Shown here: piece by piece, positions 16,177-56,144 of the stretch
Layout of the letters: the number at the start of each line of letters is the position of its first letter
Position numbering within the stretch: the stretch's first letter is position 1
Origin: a virus
Direction: 5' to 3' (one strand)
Virus record (IMG/VR): IMGVR_UViG_3300044633_000521
Length of the DNA stretch: 64,000 nt
Program-made: the position numbers and the translations under genes
Notes under the pieces: generated by a model
Seen by the model: only the letters and a program-made list of their open reading frames with translations
What the model was told of the DNA's origin: nothing
The model's database searches: none

Positions 16177-16446
16177 ATGAAACATCAAATACAGACAAGT
16201 TTAGATTGGCCTGTTGTACAAACAGCACTTGAAGCTCCACTACACCGTATGAAAAAGTATACACACGAAATGTGGAACATCAGTCATAATATTGGCTTAA
16301 TGGTTAAAGATATAAGTAAAGAAGAAATCAATTGTCGCAGGCATCAAAAGCAAACTAGACTACATAAAGAATTAGTTGACAAAGTCAATGAAGAGATAGC
16401 AAACTATGAACGCATGATAACGTTTGCTGTATTATTAACAGGTTGA
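16177..16446 (+). CDS. Hypothetical early protein
   Basis: 89-aa ORF directly after a consensus promoter. Confidence 0.6.
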   Translation: MKHQIQTSLDWPVVQTALEAPLHRMKKYTHEMWNISHNIGLMVKDISKEEINCRRHQKQTRLHKELVDKVNEEIANYERMITFAVLLTG

Positions 16447-16471
16447 CAAATTACCAAAAAGGCTATATAAT
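16443..16471 (+). promoter_or_regulatory. Sigma70-type early promoter
   Basis: Perfect TTGACA-17 bp-TATAAT. Confidence 0.8.
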
Positions 16472-16478
16472 GTTAATT

Positions 16479-16658
16479 ATGACAATAGAAGAAGCATACG
16501 CAGAAGTACAAGGGTTTGGAGAAATGAGCGGTGTCTGTAACCTGTGGGCGGCACTTAAGGCAATCGAAACTGAATGGGATGACATAGACACCCACACAAA
16601 AACAGCCTATAAAATGGTTAAACGCGAGTTAGAAAAGGAAATAACAAATGGCAATTAA
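16479..16658 (+). CDS. Hypothetical protein (probably leaderless, starts MTIEEAY)
   Basis: ATG 7 nt after TATAAT; the TTG start in the ORF track is the -35 box. Confidence 0.55.
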   Translation: MTIEEAYAEVQGFGEMSGVCNLWAALKAIETEWDDIDTHTKTAYKMVKRELEKEITNGN

Positions 16659-46954: not shown

Positions 46955-47033
46955 GGGCCCGAAGCTTAAACCTGGTATAAGCACTCGGCTCATAACCGAA
47001 AGACAGTGAGTTCAAATCTCACCAGGCCCACCA
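46955..47033 (+). tRNA. tRNA with CAT anticodon (Ile2 or elongator Met)
   Basis: Cloverleaf; loop CTCATAA; T-arm GTGAG-TTCAAAT-CTCAC; CCA encoded. Confidence 0.85.
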
Positions 47034-48691: not shown

Positions 48692-48720
48692 TTGACAAGT
48701 CAACTAAATGACTGTATAAT
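48692..48720 (+). promoter_or_regulatory. Sigma70-type promoter (leaderless transcript)
   Basis: TTGACA-17 bp-TATAAT; ATG 6 nt downstream. Confidence 0.85.
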
Positions 48721-48726
48721 ACGCTT

Positions 48727-48987
48727 ATGACCGAAGAACAACAATTAGCCTGGGATATACTAAGCACGCCAAATAATGCGGACTTTAAGAATTATCGCAG
48801 ACAGCATCGTATGACATGGTTAACTAAAGATCGCAAGATATTGTTAATTAGAGACATGGAAACGGCACATATCATAAGTTGCGTCAATATGTTAGAAGCA
48901 TTGGGGCAAGAAGAAACCTTGGCCTATAATGGCCTAATAGATGAACTAAGAAAGCGAGGAGAGCACGATGATGAAACCGTGGATTGA
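48727..48987 (+). CDS. Hypothetical protein
   Basis: 86-aa ORF with W.TKD....I.DMET.HI motif. Confidence 0.65.
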   Translation: MTEEQQLAWDILSTPNNADFKNYRRQHRMTWLTKDRKILLIRDMETAHIISCVNMLEALGQEETLAYNGLIDELRKRGEHDDETVD

Positions 48988-49412: not shown

Positions 49413-49883
49413 ATGAAAAAACTGAATTTCGACGAAGTGCGTGATTTTATTAACGCACAAACTCCAGAAACTAAAATATACATTGGCGGCGATAGTACAC
49501 GCTTTCGTAAGAACGGACAATGGCATGCCGAATATACTTTGGCTATTGTAGTTCATATTGATGGGAAACATGGTTGTAAGATATTTGGTGAAACATCAAC
49601 CGAAGTAGATTACGACCAAAAGCGCAATCGACCAAGTATGCGTCTAATGAACGAAGTATATAAAATTTCAGAATTATATTTGAAATTACACGAAGTATTA
49701 GAAGGGCGCGATGTTGCTGTTCACTTGGATATCAATCCAAACGAAGCGCACGGTTCGAGCTGTGTAGTAACACAGGCAATTGGTTACATTCGCGGTACTT
49801 GTAATGTTATCCCAATGGTTAAACCCAACGCCTGGGCCGCTAGTTATGCTGCAGACCGTTTACATCACGTATTAGCAGCATAA
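49413..49883 (+). CDS. RNase H-like YkuK (DUF458) family protein
   Basis: KIYIGGDS, RLMNEV, VHLDIN, KP.AWAASYAAD. Confidence 0.85.
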   Translation: MKKLNFDEVRDFINAQTPETKIYIGGDSTRFRKNGQWHAEYTLAIVVHIDGKHGCKIFGETSTEVDYDQKRNRPSMRLMNEVYKISELYLKLHEVLEGRDVAVHLDINPNEAHGSSCVVTQAIGYIRGTCNVIPMVKPNAWAASYAADRLHHVLAA

Positions 49884-49888
49884 ATAGG

Positions 49889-49917
49889 TTGACAATAGTG
49901 TGTGTTGACTATATAAT
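49889..49917 (+). promoter_or_regulatory. Sigma70-type promoter of the second tRNA unit
   Basis: TTGACA-17 bp-TATAAT. Confidence 0.85.
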
Positions 49918-49930
49918 ATTATTATACTGA

Positions 49931-50005
49931 CGCGGTGGTGGAGCAATTGGCAGCTCGCGAGCCTCATAAGCTCGAGACCAGGTTCGAGTCCTGCGACCGC
50001 AACCA
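49931..50005 (+). tRNA. Initiator-like tRNA-Met(CAT) with atypical 8/4 fold
   Basis: C1:A72 mismatch, A11-U24, loop CTCATAA, 8-nt acceptor strands, 4-bp T stem, CCA. Confidence 0.85.
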
Positions 50006-50007
50006 AC

Positions 50008-50205
50008 ACTAGGGTTACACTTTTACTTTATGAAAGTGGGTCATTGCCAATACCATAACGGCACAGTGCATACGTTCTACTGCAAGGCTCCATTTCCGAG
50101 CGACTTGAGAAATACGTAGGGGTTTTATTGTTTCGTACCAGATGGAAACAGTCGGACAGGGTAACTACTCAGTTTAGGGCCAGGTAGTGCTGGTAGCTAG
50201 ACACC
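50008..50205 (+). ncRNA. Unassigned ~200-nt multi-stem RNA between tRNAs
   Basis: GC-richer non-coding spacer with several hairpins and long-range GGTTAC/GTAACT and TGAG/CTCA pairings. Confidence 0.5.
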
Positions 50206-50207
50206 TT

Positions 50208-50283
50208 GCTCCCATCGTCTAGAGGCCTAGGACACCCGCCTTTCACGCAGGTAACACGAGTTCGAATCTCGTTGGGAGTACCA
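50208..50283 (+). tRNA. tRNA-Glu(TTC)
   Basis: D-arm GTCTAGAGGCCTAGGAC, loop CTTTCAC, CCA. Confidence 0.92.
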
Positions 50284-50291
50284 AGTTTTAA

Positions 50292-50367
50292 GCCGGTTTA
50301 GCTCAGCAGGTAGAGCAGCGCACTTGTAATGCGAAGGTCAACAGTTCGATTCCGTTAACCGGCACCA
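50292..50367 (+). tRNA. tRNA-Thr(TGT)
   Basis: CGCA-CTTGTAA-TGCG, CCA. Confidence 0.93.
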
Positions 50368-50377
50368 AAAGTTTTAT

Positions 50378-50451
50378 GCGGGATTGGTGTAATGGTAGCA
50401 CAAGAGTTTTCCAAACTTTTAGCGAGGGTTCGATCCCCTTATCCCGCTCCA
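50378..50451 (+). tRNA. tRNA-Gly(TCC)
   Basis: GCGGGAT/ATCCCGC, loop TTTCCAA, U73, CCA. Confidence 0.93.
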
Positions 50452-50462
50452 TAGGAATATAA

Positions 50463-51569
50463 ATGACTAAAGTCTATTGCGCAGCTCCGTGGAGAGGCTT
50501 ACATATTACAACCGAAGGTGATGTTAAACCTTGTTGTTCTGGAGCATACGGATTTGGTAATATCAATGAACAAAATATTAAAGAAATATTAAATTCATTG
50601 AGCTGGCAAGAATTGCGAGAGCAAATTGCCAGTAATGATATTCCTAATTATTGTATAGGCTGTAAACAGCAAGGTGATGTCACTACTAGCGAACGTAACT
50701 GGCATAACAATAATAGTTTGGATATAAATGACTTAGGTTCTAATTATCATGCTCCTGCTATATTAGATGTACGTTGGAGCAATGCTTGTAATTTGATGTG
50801 CGTGTACTGTAATCCAAACGATAGTAGTATGTGGGCCAAAAAGTTAAGTATCCCACTACAGACTAAACGCAAAGAATATTATACTAATGTCATTGATTAT
50901 ATAACTGCTCATCAACAAAATCTTAAAACTGTGGCATTAATTGGTGGTGAGCCTTTGTTAATTCCGCAATGCGCAGACCTGCTTGACAATATACCGGACA
51001 CAGTTGATATTCATGTAATTTCAAATTTAAGTTTAAACTTAGAAAACAATCCGGTATTTCAGCGCCTATCTACTAGAAAGAAAGTGCGCTGGAGTGTGAG
51101 TTTTGAAAATGTAGGAAAACAGTTTGAATTTGTGCGTAGAGGAGCAAGTTGGGAACAGTTGACTAAAAATTTAGATTTGCTATTGGGCTTAGAAAGAACG
51201 CAGGGCCATATTATAGACATACATGCTATTCTCAATATATTAAGCCTAAGTGCTTTTAAAGTATTGACTGATTTTGCCTTTGACAAACGTATTAAAATTG
51301 TATTTCAATTTTTAGATCAGCCTGCGGAATTGGATCTGCGTAAATTTCCTAAGCATATAGTTAATACTATTAAAACACAAGCAGAAAATGTATACAAAGA
51401 TATTCAAACTGAATGGGATGAGCATAATACAATTGTTCAATATTTTGCTGCTGACCAAATTGAAGTACCTGATCAAATAGATAATTTTTATAAATTTGTA
51501 AATGAGTGCAGCACTGAAGATTTAAAATTTAATCAACTGTGGCCCGAACTAGATCAATTACTCCGCTAG
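50463..51569 (+). CDS. Radical SAM protein with N-terminal twitch/SPASM-like domain
   Basis: YCAAPW...PCC...CIGC; CNLMCVYC; GGEP. Confidence 0.9.
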   Translation: MTKVYCAAPWRGLHITTEGDVKPCCSGAYGFGNINEQNIKEILNSLSWQELREQIASNDIPNYCIGCKQQGDVTTSERNWHNNNSLDINDLGSNYHAPAILDVRWSNACNLMCVYCNPNDSSMWAKKLSIPLQTKRKEYYTNVIDYITAHQQNLKTVALIGGEPLLIPQCADLLDNIPDTVDIHVISNLSLNLENNPVFQRLSTRKKVRWSVSFENVGKQFEFVRRGASWEQLTKNLDLLLGLERTQGHIIDIHAILNILSLSAFKVLTDFAFDKRIKIVFQFLDQPAELDLRKFPKHIVNTIKTQAENVYKDIQTEWDEHNTIVQYFAADQIEVPDQIDNFYKFVNECSTEDLKFNQLWPELDQLLR

Positions 51570-54190: not shown

Positions 54191-54823
54191 ATGAAAATAG
54201 AATTCAGTCAAGCAAGATATTTGCTATCGTCGATTAAATTTGACCCAGGTGTAGATCACACAACGTTAATAGAAGAACTTAAAAAACAAAAGTGGACTAG
54301 TTGGGGAGAAAGTGTTCCTATGGGACACGAAAACTATAACTGGAGTCGACGCTACAGATTAATGCGTGAAGATATAACTAGTCCTTTGTTAAAACAAATA
54401 CACGATTTCTTACAAAGCATCGACACGCACGAACCTTTATTAGAAGCACTATATTCTTTTAATCCCGGATTCGAAGGTATGTGGAGCCTATCGAAAGATC
54501 AAATGCGCAAGTGGGCAACACTACACATGGAATTTATGTTAGACAAACCTGGATTTAAATTAGAACCACACAACGACTATCGTAGACTTGTCGGCGCAGG
54601 CATGATATATTTTACAGAACATAATGACCCTGATGTAGCTACAACATTTTACGAAGATCGCCAATTAACTAATCCTGTAGTAATGAACACAGAGTTTGGC
54701 TCAGGCTGGTTTGCGGCAAATGCTTATGAGAATTACCACAGTGGTATTAATAATAGCAACTACGATAGATATAGTGTCTTATTAGGCCTAACAATTAAAA
54801 CTCCGGATGAATATGACCGATAA
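54191..54823 (+). CDS. 2OG-Fe(II) oxygenase-like protein (paralogue of the divergent neighbour)
   Basis: DKPGF...PHND...GWFAAN...YHSG.N...DRYSV. Confidence 0.65.
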   Translation: MKIEFSQARYLLSSIKFDPGVDHTTLIEELKKQKWTSWGESVPMGHENYNWSRRYRLMREDITSPLLKQIHDFLQSIDTHEPLLEALYSFNPGFEGMWSLSKDQMRKWATLHMEFMLDKPGFKLEPHNDYRRLVGAGMIYFTEHNDPDVATTFYEDRQLTNPVVMNTEFGSGWFAANAYENYHSGINNSNYDRYSVLLGLTIKTPDEYDR

Positions 54824-56144
54824 TCGCAAAGTATGGCCAATAAAATCAGATACCTCATGCTACCTTAAATGGTCATGGAGTACGATCTATCTCAATCGTG
54901 CTACTACTGCTAGTTGTCATCGCACAGTACACAACGATTTAACTGTAGAAAACTTTGATAATTTCCACAACCTACCTAAAAAGTTAGATGACCGTAAGCG
55001 TATGCTTGCTGGTGGGTGGCCTGAGGAAAGTGAAACAGATAAGTTCGGCCTTAACGGCTGTACATATTGTAAGCACATGGAAGACAAAGGCGGAGTTAGT
55101 GATCGCCTAGTGCAACTGCGTAATCTTAAAGGTGTGTTTGAAACCCACACCAACGTACTGCCTCCGGAACTTATCGAAAATCCAGAAGCCATAGAAGTTA
55201 CTCCTACTATTGTAGAAGTCTACTTTAACAATGTATGTAACATGGCCTGCTTGTACTGTGGTCCGCATTTCAGTACCATGTGGGAAGAAGAGAATCGCAA
55301 ATTTAGTGCTGTGGAAGATGGCATTTTAGTTAACCCAAGTTGGGAACGTGATCAAACTCGCTATGATGATATGCGTGATAAGTTGTTTGAGTGGTTACGC
55401 ATTCACGGGCATAAGATCTGGAACTTTGGTATGTTGGGTGGCGAACCCTTCTTCCAAAAAGAATTTGACATGGTCTTAGATCATTGGGACAACTATCCTA
55501 ACCCAGACCTGTTCTTTACTATTGTTACCAATCTTAAAGTAGAGCATAAGCGTTTTGTTGGCTATATTGATAGACTTAAACGTATGGTTGACGATAAAAA
55601 GATTAAACATCTTAATATCAGTGCTAGCATGGACTGTTGGGGTCCGCAGGCAGAATACATTCGTTGGGGATTAAAACTTAGCGAATGGGAAAAGAACTTT
55701 GAGTACATGGCCAAACAAGAATGGATTATTCTTAATGTTAATCTAACCATTACTCCACTTAGTATTAAAACTCTACCCGAGCTTATTGAGAAACTAAATG
55801 CTTTAGATAAGTTTAGAGCACCTACTAAGCATATCTGTATTAGTTTTATGCACGTCTTACAACCTACACAGTTAAACCCCTTGTGGTTTGGCCCTGGTGT
55901 ATTTACTGAAGATATGCAGAGAGTCATTGACGTCATGCCTACGGTCACAGAATATCAGCGGAACTTTAAAGAGTATATGGCAGGTATTGCTAACAGCATA
56001 GAAAAGACACCGCGTGATCCTAGTAAAATTCTTATGCTAGAAACCTACTTAAATGAAATGGATCGTCGCAGGGGCACTAACTGGCGAGATTTGTGGCCTT
56101 GGTTAGAAGATCAATTTGCGCAAGCGCACCAGGAAGTGTTGTAA
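54807..56144 (+). CDS. Radical SAM protein
   Basis: CYLKW...SCH...CTYC; CNMACLYC; GGEP; DRRRGTNW tail. Confidence 0.9.
   Translation: MNMTDNRKVWPIKSDTSCYLKWSWSTIYLNRATTASCHRTVHNDLTVENFDNFHNLPKKLDDRKRMLAGGWPEESETDKFGLNGCTYCKHMEDKGGVSDRLVQLRNLKGVFETHTNVLPPELIENPEAIEVTPTIVEVYFNNVCNMACLYCGPHFSTMWEEENRKFSAVEDGILVNPSWERDQTRYDDMRDKLFEWLRIHGHKIWNFGMLGGEPFFQKEFDMVLDHWDNYPNPDLFFTIVTNLKVEHKRFVGYIDRLKRMVDDKKIKHLNISASMDCWGPQAEYIRWGLKLSEWEKNFEYMAKQEWIILNVNLTITPLSIKTLPELIEKLNALDKFRAPTKHICISFMHVLQPTQLNPLWFGPGVFTEDMQRVIDVMPTVTEYQRNFKEYMAGIANSIEKTPRDPSKILMLETYLNEMDRRRGTNWRDLWPWLEDQFAQAHQEVL

Follow-up and report, generated by a model that had tools for sequence, protein, structure and literature searches.

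A putative phage initiator tRNA-Met with an 8/4 acceptor/T architecture and its recurrence among viral and metagenomic contigs

Initiator tRNAs rank with the best-conserved RNAs known, and the frame of seven acceptor and five T-stem levels (7/5) on which they are built, near-universal in tRNAs, has to be recognised by RNase P, MetRS, formyltransferase and IF2 and in the P site. The tRNA gene at positions 49931–50005 of the window, i.e., the whole 64,000-nt stretch of viral DNA analysed here (IMG/VR record IMGVR_UViG_3300044633_000521), looks like an initiator and does not form the standard 7/5 cloverleaf. This raises the question of whether the gene is damaged, whether its ends or its pairs have been drawn incorrectly, or whether it represents an initiator that is built differently, with eight acceptor and four T-stem levels (8/4).

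Layout of the gene and its initiator features

ARAGORN calls a 75-nt tRNA-Met(cat) at 49931–50005 (+), and Rfam family RF00005 matches the same interval with 53.3 bits (E 1.3e-8) in a search of the whole window. This is the lowest Rfam score among the 14 tRNAs of the window, and in the Rfam alignment the T stem is short of one pair and a non-standard G·G is present. No ORF of 50 aa or more lies over the gene on either strand. The gene is composed of the following parts.

49931–50005, + strand: initiator-type tRNA-Met(CAU) with 8/4 acceptor/T layout, 75 nt including the encoded CCA (ARAGORN, Rfam and comparison)
49931–49938, + strand: 5' acceptor strand CGCGGTGG, 8 nt (C1 G2 C3 G4 G5 U6 G7 G7a)
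49938, + strand: extra base G7a, with C65 (49994) as partner
Between 5' acceptor strand and D arm, + strand: TG linker, read directly
49941–49956, + strand: D arm GAGC-AATTGGCA-GCTC, with A11:U24, A14, G18 and G19
Between D arm and anticodon arm, + strand: single G, read directly
49958–49974, + strand: anticodon arm CGAGC-CTCATAA-GCTCG, read directly
49963–49969, + strand: 7-nt anticodon loop CTCATAA, with the anticodon CAT at 49965–49967
Within 49958–49974, + strand: anticodon-stem pairs 29:41 A:U, 30:40 G:C and 31:39 C:G
49975–49978, + strand: variable loop AGAC, 4 nt, the final C of which never pairs with nucleotide 65
49979–49993, + strand: T arm CAGG-TTCGAGT-CCTG with a 4-bp stem
49994–50001, + strand: 3' acceptor strand CGACCGCA, 8 nt (C65 G66 A67 C68 C69 G70 C71 A72)
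Within the 3' acceptor strand, + strand: G66 opposite G7, a conserved mismatch at the seventh acceptor level
50002–50005, + strand: discriminator A73 and encoded CCA, which fix the register with C49931 as nucleotide 1

A 7/5 tRNA requires at least 14 nt from anticodon loop to T loop; in the 8/4 gene this distance is only 13 nt. On the 3' side, the stretch from the T loop to the discriminator has the normal 12 nt. The D arm, with its 4-bp stem and 8-nt loop, is identical to the D arms of the 7/5 phage initiators at loci L074, L079 and L080, and compared with these the window gene has one more base before U8. The stack thus drawn has 12 levels, two of which (C1·A72 and G7·G66) are non-Watson-Crick. 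All 13 ARAGORN tRNAs of the 99.6-kb record to which the window belongs end in an encoded CCA, and in the 8/4 gene the CCA follows GC-A-A, which places A50001 at nucleotide 72, opposite C49931, and makes A50002 the discriminator.

The gene had been predicted to be initiator-like, and the features named in support of this are all present. The anticodon is CAU within the 7-nt loop CTCATAA, C49931 faces A50001 so that 1:72 is without a Watson-Crick pair, G2:C71 and C3:G70, which are formyltransferase determinants, are found together with A73, and the D stem GAGC/GCTC contains A11:U24. The claim that the anticodon stem has no 3GC pairs was, on the other hand, overstated. Three consecutive G:C pairs at 29:41, 30:40 and 31:39 are not found, since the window gene has A:U, G:C and C:G (au/GC/cg) and two of the three canonical pairs are missing, but G30:C40 is kept, and of the three pairs this alone has been shown to be indispensable in E. 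coli (Shetty et al., 2017, PMC5389676). Initiators with an incomplete 3GC set occur naturally in some Mycoplasma and alpha-proteobacteria, with au/GC/GC and similar stems (PMC5389676). The window tRNA resembles them in having A:U as the first pair and in keeping the middle G30:C40, whereas the Mycoplasma and alpha-proteobacterial variants have purine:pyrimidine at all three positions and are 7/5. The C:G at 31:39 of the window tRNA is closest to the engineered cg/GC/cg mutant, which sustains growth of E. coli with defects in minimal medium and in the cold, where it grows poorly (PMC5389676). Among 7/5 phage initiators the full 3GC is also missing from those of Rhizobium phage RHph_TM3_3_3 and Vibrio phage D69, with CCAGC/GCTGG.

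Recurrence of the layout and comparison of folds

The search for homologues started from the neighbouring RNaseH-like gene (PF04308), which led to 71 related viral loci. The exact anticodon-to-T-arm segment gave no match in viral contigs, and degenerate patterns were required; the pattern used left positions 6–8 and 61–67 free and imposed G2:C71, C3:G70 and A73, so that the conservation of these three in the class is uninformative. The 8/4 pattern was matched by 88 viral contigs and at least 120 metagenome contigs. Among 185,579 prokaryote species genomes it was matched by only eight contigs, all from MAGs, with just one or two tRNA genes at six of the eight loci. The class is rare outside viral and metagenomic contigs. 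After pooling, 85 distinct sequences of 8/4 layout from more than 200 viral and metagenomic contigs were available. When four class members were used as BLAST queries against about 50,700 phage records, the 8/4 form was identified in the uncultured faecal contig MT835492, and no cultured phage with an 8/4 initiator was found among the hits that were opened; these carried 7/5 initiators (Rhizobium RHph_TM3_3_3, Bordetella PHB04, Vibrio D69, Rhodobacter RcXuper, Stenotrophomonas QDWS359 and IAS virus).

Homologues that fold 7/5, with an indel private to this copy, had been named as an outcome that would overturn the original prediction. Close and distant homologues keep the 8/4 layout. The tRNA is identical to that of its relative L034 at 72 of 75 positions, and the sole internal change is compensatory, while the coding gene beside the tRNA has many differences between the two, mostly synonymous-looking; the view that the gene is not decaying is borne out by this conservation next to a coding gene that differs at many sites. 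Several related loci have the same tRNA with A1 in place of C1 and a compensatory change from G:C to C:G at 28:42, and the 8/4 tRNA sequence occurs in three different flank contexts. As judged from these sequence comparisons, the 8/4 initiators are a real structural class and not a damaged gene. Within the class the anticodon loop CUCAUAA is invariant, G30 is kept in 79/85 members, and 11:24 is A:U in 41/85 and U:A in 37/85. At 1:72 a mismatch is found in 36/85 and U:A in 49/85 (58%), and for this reason initiator function may not hold for every member.

Three folds were compared on an alignment of 50 sequences, and the pair counts were repeated on the pool of 85. With the 8/4 fold 90.8% of cells in the 50 sequences are paired, vs. 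68% in shuffles and about 40% with slid partners. The pair 7a:65 is standard in 49/50 (G:C 40, A:U 8, G·U 1, A·C 1) with eight double changes, and in 84/85 of the pool (G:C 71, A:U 12, G·U 1, A·C 1). None of the aligned sequences (0/50) forms the canonical 49:65 pair, and the 7/5 fold was rejected on these grounds; the 8/4 architecture originally proposed is upheld by the same counts. At 6:67 the alignment has U:A 21, A:U 21, G:C 3 and U·G 3, and the T-stem pairs 51:63 and 52:62 show full covariation. At 50:64 Watson-Crick pairs make up 24/50 and other combinations 26/50 (25 G·A, 1 A·G). The 7:66 level is G·G in 44 and U:A in 6 of the 50 sequences (G·G 80, U:A 4 and C:G 1 in the pool), and sequences with U7:A66 or C7:G66 have a continuous 8-level helix. 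RNAalifold, without a supplied structure, predicts 7a:65 and skips 7:66.

For the window sequence the nearest-neighbour energies are -25.5 kcal/mol for the 8/4 fold, -23.7 without 7a:65 and -22.7 for a slipped form (see below), so that among the three cloverleaf models the 8/4 fold has the lowest energy. The unconstrained single-sequence minimum (-25.9 kcal/mol) has a shape other than the cloverleaf, is no more stable than the folds of shuffled sequences (z -0.49) and is uninformative for this reason. When a tree was drawn from these short sequences, 7a/65 switched independently only twice on supported branches, and five times on the best tree. With so few independent switches a phylogeny-aware sign test cannot reach significance, and the case against 7/5 rests on pairing potential. 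U8, A14, G18, G19, A21, T54, T55, C56 and A58 are invariant in the class, and N9 covaries with the 12:23 pair, matching the standard base triple. The elbow, and the distance of 12 levels from the T loop to the 3' end, should be the same as in an ordinary tRNA.

Genomic setting

The surroundings of the gene that are relevant to its expression, and a second CAU tRNA gene of the window, are as follows.

49889–49917, + strand: sigma-70-type promoter, TTGACA (49889–49894), 17-nt spacer and TATAAT (49912–49917), 12/12 consensus matches
50006–50451, + strand: likely remainder of the transcription unit, spacer RNA followed by three tRNA genes
50006–50207, + strand: spacer RNA, about 200 nt
50208–50283, + strand: tRNA-Glu
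50292–50367, + strand: tRNA-Thr
50378–50451, + strand: tRNA-Gly
46955–47030, + strand: elongator-type tRNA-Met(CAU), 7/5, G1:C72 (Rfam 53.5 bits, missed by ARAGORN)

The promoter ends 13 nt upstream of the 8/4 gene; transcription is predicted to start at about 49924, leaving a leader of about 7 nt, and the 8/4 gene likely opens a small tRNA operon downstream of the predicted promoter. That it is the first gene after a consensus promoter of its own had been taken as an argument against decay. A perfect promoter is indeed found directly upstream, but there is nothing special about it: the same strand of the window has seven such sites, six with 12/12 matches and one 11/12 variant with TTGACG, and the promoter is therefore typical of the phage and not particular to the tRNA gene. 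An ATG follows the -10 box by 7–8 nt at only 2/7 of these sites. Both are perfect promoters (48692–48730 and 16443–16482) and give candidate leaderless mRNAs, which include the ORF at 48727–48987. Two such sites do not bear out the originally proposed abundance of leaderless phage mRNAs, and the proposals that the 8/4 fold evades VapC-type nucleases or suits leaderless mRNAs are speculation.

The spacer of about 200 nt at 50006–50207 has no Rfam family match and no ORF. The block of initiator tRNA, spacer and tRNA-Glu is conserved in L034, where the spacer differs by substitutions and indels and moves as a block with both tRNAs; downstream of the same tRNA in the L073 group the spacer is missing.

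Besides the 8/4 gene the phage has another CAU tRNA, encoded by the elongator-type gene at 46955–47030. In four related records, exactly one initiator-type gene was counted per record.

G001 (complete, 329 kb): 7/5 form
G005: 7/5 form
G000 (the window's own record): 8/4 form
G003: 8/4 form

No locus was found to carry both forms among 106 loci with the 8/4 and 20 loci with the 7/5 initiator. Having one form per record or locus indicates that the 8/4 gene replaces the standard initiator and does not duplicate it. The different place of the 8/4 gene in the tRNA array suggests gene exchange.

The window encodes a tail sheath of 1083 aa and a large terminase that is about 54% identical to the terminase of the Pseudomonas jumbo phage PA5oct, from which the virus is taken to be an uncultured jumbo myovirus; CheckV completeness of the 99.6-kb record is 29%. 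When 1377 ORFs from 165 loci were clustered, no protein family was found to be constant beside the 8/4 tRNA, the maximum being 17 of 165 loci, and the recurrent neighbour families were homing endonucleases and DNA methylases. The neighbours most widely common to different 8/4 sequence types are genes for PD-(D/E)XK and GIY-YIG/NUMOD homing endonucleases (e.g., L360:5994-6779, L382:5224-6201 and relatives), which fits the idea that the tRNA genes are shuffled between phages. The RNaseH-like protein used in the search (PF04308, phrog_11311; window 49413–49883) is encoded in or beside the tRNA arrays of the 71 related viral loci (L002–L072), whichever initiator type the locus carries. Just past the tRNA cluster, the ORF at 50463–51569 has a SPASM domain (residues 6–68) before a radical SAM core (106–241), the usual order being radical SAM core before SPASM; a second radical SAM ORF is located at 54807–56144.

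Other unusual initiator-like tRNAs were encountered. A second group (L085, L089, L111, L116 and others) has the 13-nt spacing with a 5' half of normal length, a U6·U67 mismatch and C49 facing A65; its U8 could pair with A65, leaving a 1-nt linker. Further odd cases are found in L139, L172, L113 and L115, at L032:2931-3000 and at L061-L064:935-1006. In some of these the 3' strand CGACCGCA stands opposite a 5' side of only 7 nt, implying a bulge, the L032 tRNA has 13 and not 12 nt after the T loop, and several are truncated or missed by ARAGORN. Finally, a recurrent element CTCATAA-GTTAT-CATACA-GG-TTCGAAT-CCTGTCCTGAC in L090, L107, L121, L124, L150, L196 and others has a T-arm-like hairpin, yet no tRNA is called there by ARAGORN.

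Alternative readings and possible function

The presence of G at both 7 and 66 would also be accounted for by a slipped or bulged fold, in which G7 pairs with C65, G66 is bulged, and G7a, U8 and G9 form a 3-nt linker between a 7-level acceptor and a 4-bp T stem, either permanently or by switching with the 8/4 form. Pairing of 7 with 65 is possible in 44/50 sequences (G:C 35, G·U 9), and G7 with C65 or U65 and a bulged G66 in 80/85 of the pool. However, 7:65 shows zero double changes, and the slipped fold fails in all six U7 sequences, which form U7:A66 and G7a:C65. It also leaves unexplained that 7a becomes A when 65 becomes U (8/9 in the alignment; 12 A:U in the pool), lies 2.8 kcal/mol above the 8/4 cloverleaf in folding energy and has only 11 stack levels. 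The case against the slipped form is moderate, and we regard it as quite unlikely. Rfam and one ARAGORN mode draw the gene in yet another way, with a mature tRNA that begins at G49932 and has a closed 7-bp acceptor, a 4-bp T stem and A50001 as discriminator; such a product would be an elongator-like tRNA-Met or a lysidine-modified tRNA-Ile2. U is the commonest base at column 1 and a common -1 base before RNase P sites, as this start would have it. The encoded CCA would then, however, be one base off in the window and in 54/85 members. Across the class the CCA is in the register of a C49931 start in these 54/85 and in the register of the 7/4 reading in 0/85, the remaining 3' tails mostly resembling a decayed CCA (e.g., ACTA, ACAA), and the 7/4 fold from G49932 was rejected on the CCA register. 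In addition, this start leaves only 11 stack levels, column 1 is never G in the class, both gene ends are identical in sequence to those of ordinary C1·A72 initiators (CGCGG...CCGCAACCA), an elongator tRNA-Met is already present in the phage, and the G4:C69 and G5:C68 of the window tRNA are unlike the TilS determinants C4:G69 and C5:G68. A start at G49932 is highly improbable.

A tRNA-shaped RNA could also act outside translation, as a decoy or sponge for a host toxin that targets tRNAs, as a processing signal for the 200-nt RNA, or as a primer or recombination site. Homing endonuclease genes recur close to the 8/4 tRNAs, and some 8/4 allo-tRNAs seem to be inactive in translation and are tied to toxin-antitoxin loci (PMC5389517). 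Against such a role stand the invariant anticodon loop CUCAUAA, the elbow residues, G2:C71, C3:G70 and A73-CCA, which are kept as for a charged, ribosome-bound tRNA, and the fact that this is the only initiator-type gene in each record, so that a function of this kind is very unlikely. That the gene is a decaying pseudogene, or the product of an assembly or sequencing indel in one contig, would agree with its having the lowest Rfam score of the 14 window tRNAs and a single-sequence fold no better than shuffles. It is hardly credible, since 85 different sequences from independent samples share the architecture and show compensatory changes in each stem, and since near-identical copies occur in relatives whose flanks have diverged.

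It is likely that the gene encodes a functional initiator-type tRNA-Met of the phage, one of a conserved and largely phage-associated class whose coaxial acceptor/T stack is split 8+4. In such a tRNA the 5' strand of the T stem would have lost nucleotide 49, and the 5' acceptor strand would have gained 7a, pairing with 65. The stack would keep 12 levels, i.e., C1·A72, five Watson-Crick pairs, G7·G66, G7a:C65 and four T-stem pairs, and the elbow contacts of U8, A14, G18, G19, T54, Ψ55, C56 and A58 would be intact. The 12-level length would lead RNase P to cleave 5' of C49931, the CAU anticodon and A73 would allow charging by the host MetRS, the host formyltransferase would recognise C1·A72, G2:C71 and C3:G70, and G30:C40 would permit entry into the ribosomal P site. 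No genes for formyltransferase (PF00551) or peptide deformylase (PF01327) were found in the window's own record and four relatives, one of them complete, and the tRNA would consequently have to be handled by host enzymes. During infection it would probably supplement or replace the host initiator.

The 8/4 tRNA can be compared with several known types. It is like the canonical tRNA-fMet of bacteria and phages (E. coli metZ/metY type; phage comparators L074, L079, L080 and the annotated tRNA-fMet of Stenotrophomonas phage vB_Sm_QDWS359) in its CUCAUAA loop, C1·A72, G2:C71, C3:G70, A73-CCA, A11:U24 and G30:C40, and unlike it in the extra 5' acceptor base, the absence of nucleotide 49, the 4-nt variable loop, the 4-bp T stem, G7·G66 and the presence of only one of the three G:C pairs. 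An acceptor stem of more than 7 bp is shared with tRNA-Sec, which is 8/5 in bacteria and 9/4 in archaea and eukaryotes and is read by specialised partners; tRNA-Sec differs in having 13 levels, a long variable arm, a 6-bp D stem, a UCA anticodon and delivery by SelB in the elongation phase. Published 8/4 tRNAs comprise those for Ser, His, Cys and Sec as well as allo-tRNAs; tRNAs with this split can function on bacterial ribosomes and in E. coli translation, and a constant spacing of T loop and 3' end is the logic of both 8/4 and 9/3 tRNAs (Mukai et al., 2017, PMC5389517). The 8+4 split of a 12-level branch is common to the window tRNA, the allo-tRNAs and the (8/4) tRNA-His and tRNA-Ser of phages and bacteria, and such published tRNAs are found in phage tRNA clusters as well (PMC5389517). 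To this extent the parallel with allo-tRNAs drawn in the original prediction is apt, but the window tRNA is not itself an allo-tRNA. Allo-tRNAs have a long variable arm, an extended D stem with a tetraloop and Ser identity (G73 or U73), whereas the window tRNA has none of the three, with its 4-nt variable loop, normal D arm (4-bp stem, 8-nt loop) and A73. The G·G that is conserved one level above the acceptor/T junction in the window tRNA and its class is absent from the descriptions in PMC5389517. The words 'initiator', 'fMet' and 'Met' are absent from the text of Mukai et al. (2017) (PMC5389517), initiators are unmentioned in a review of non-canonical tRNAs, and no paper describing an 8/4 initiator was found in a search that left subscription journals mostly outside, for which reason absence is no proof. 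The class is apparently undescribed so far.

Together with the conserved G7·G66, which is often accompanied by G50·A64, the 8/4 split may be an adaptation, and more than a variant that is tolerated, which makes the tRNA a poor substrate for host readers of the acceptor/T helix while it is still accepted by MetRS, formyltransferase and IF2. This is a tentative and rather unlikely suggestion. Candidates for the factors evaded would be anti-phage toxins against initiator tRNA or tRNA ends, peptidyl-tRNA hydrolase and EF-Tu. That phage tRNAs escape anticodon nucleases is a published hypothesis, which concerns anticodon loops and not architecture (PMC10264068). If the adaptation reading is true, the phage would possess a private initiator that survives host translation shut-off, and a fold that insulates a tRNA from host factors would represent a novel type of phage counter-defence. 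The 8/4 tRNA could also serve as a ready-made scaffold for orthogonal translation initiation. As standard tRNA finders give these genes the wrong 5' end or overlook some of the related tRNAs with the 13-nt spacing, phage initiators are probably under-annotated. A widespread natural family in which the acceptor/T junction is shifted by one pair may indicate how much of the initiator frame is truly required, and would bring the 8/4 architecture, published for Ser, His, Cys and Sec tRNAs, to an ordinary tRNA with a short variable loop and to initiation.
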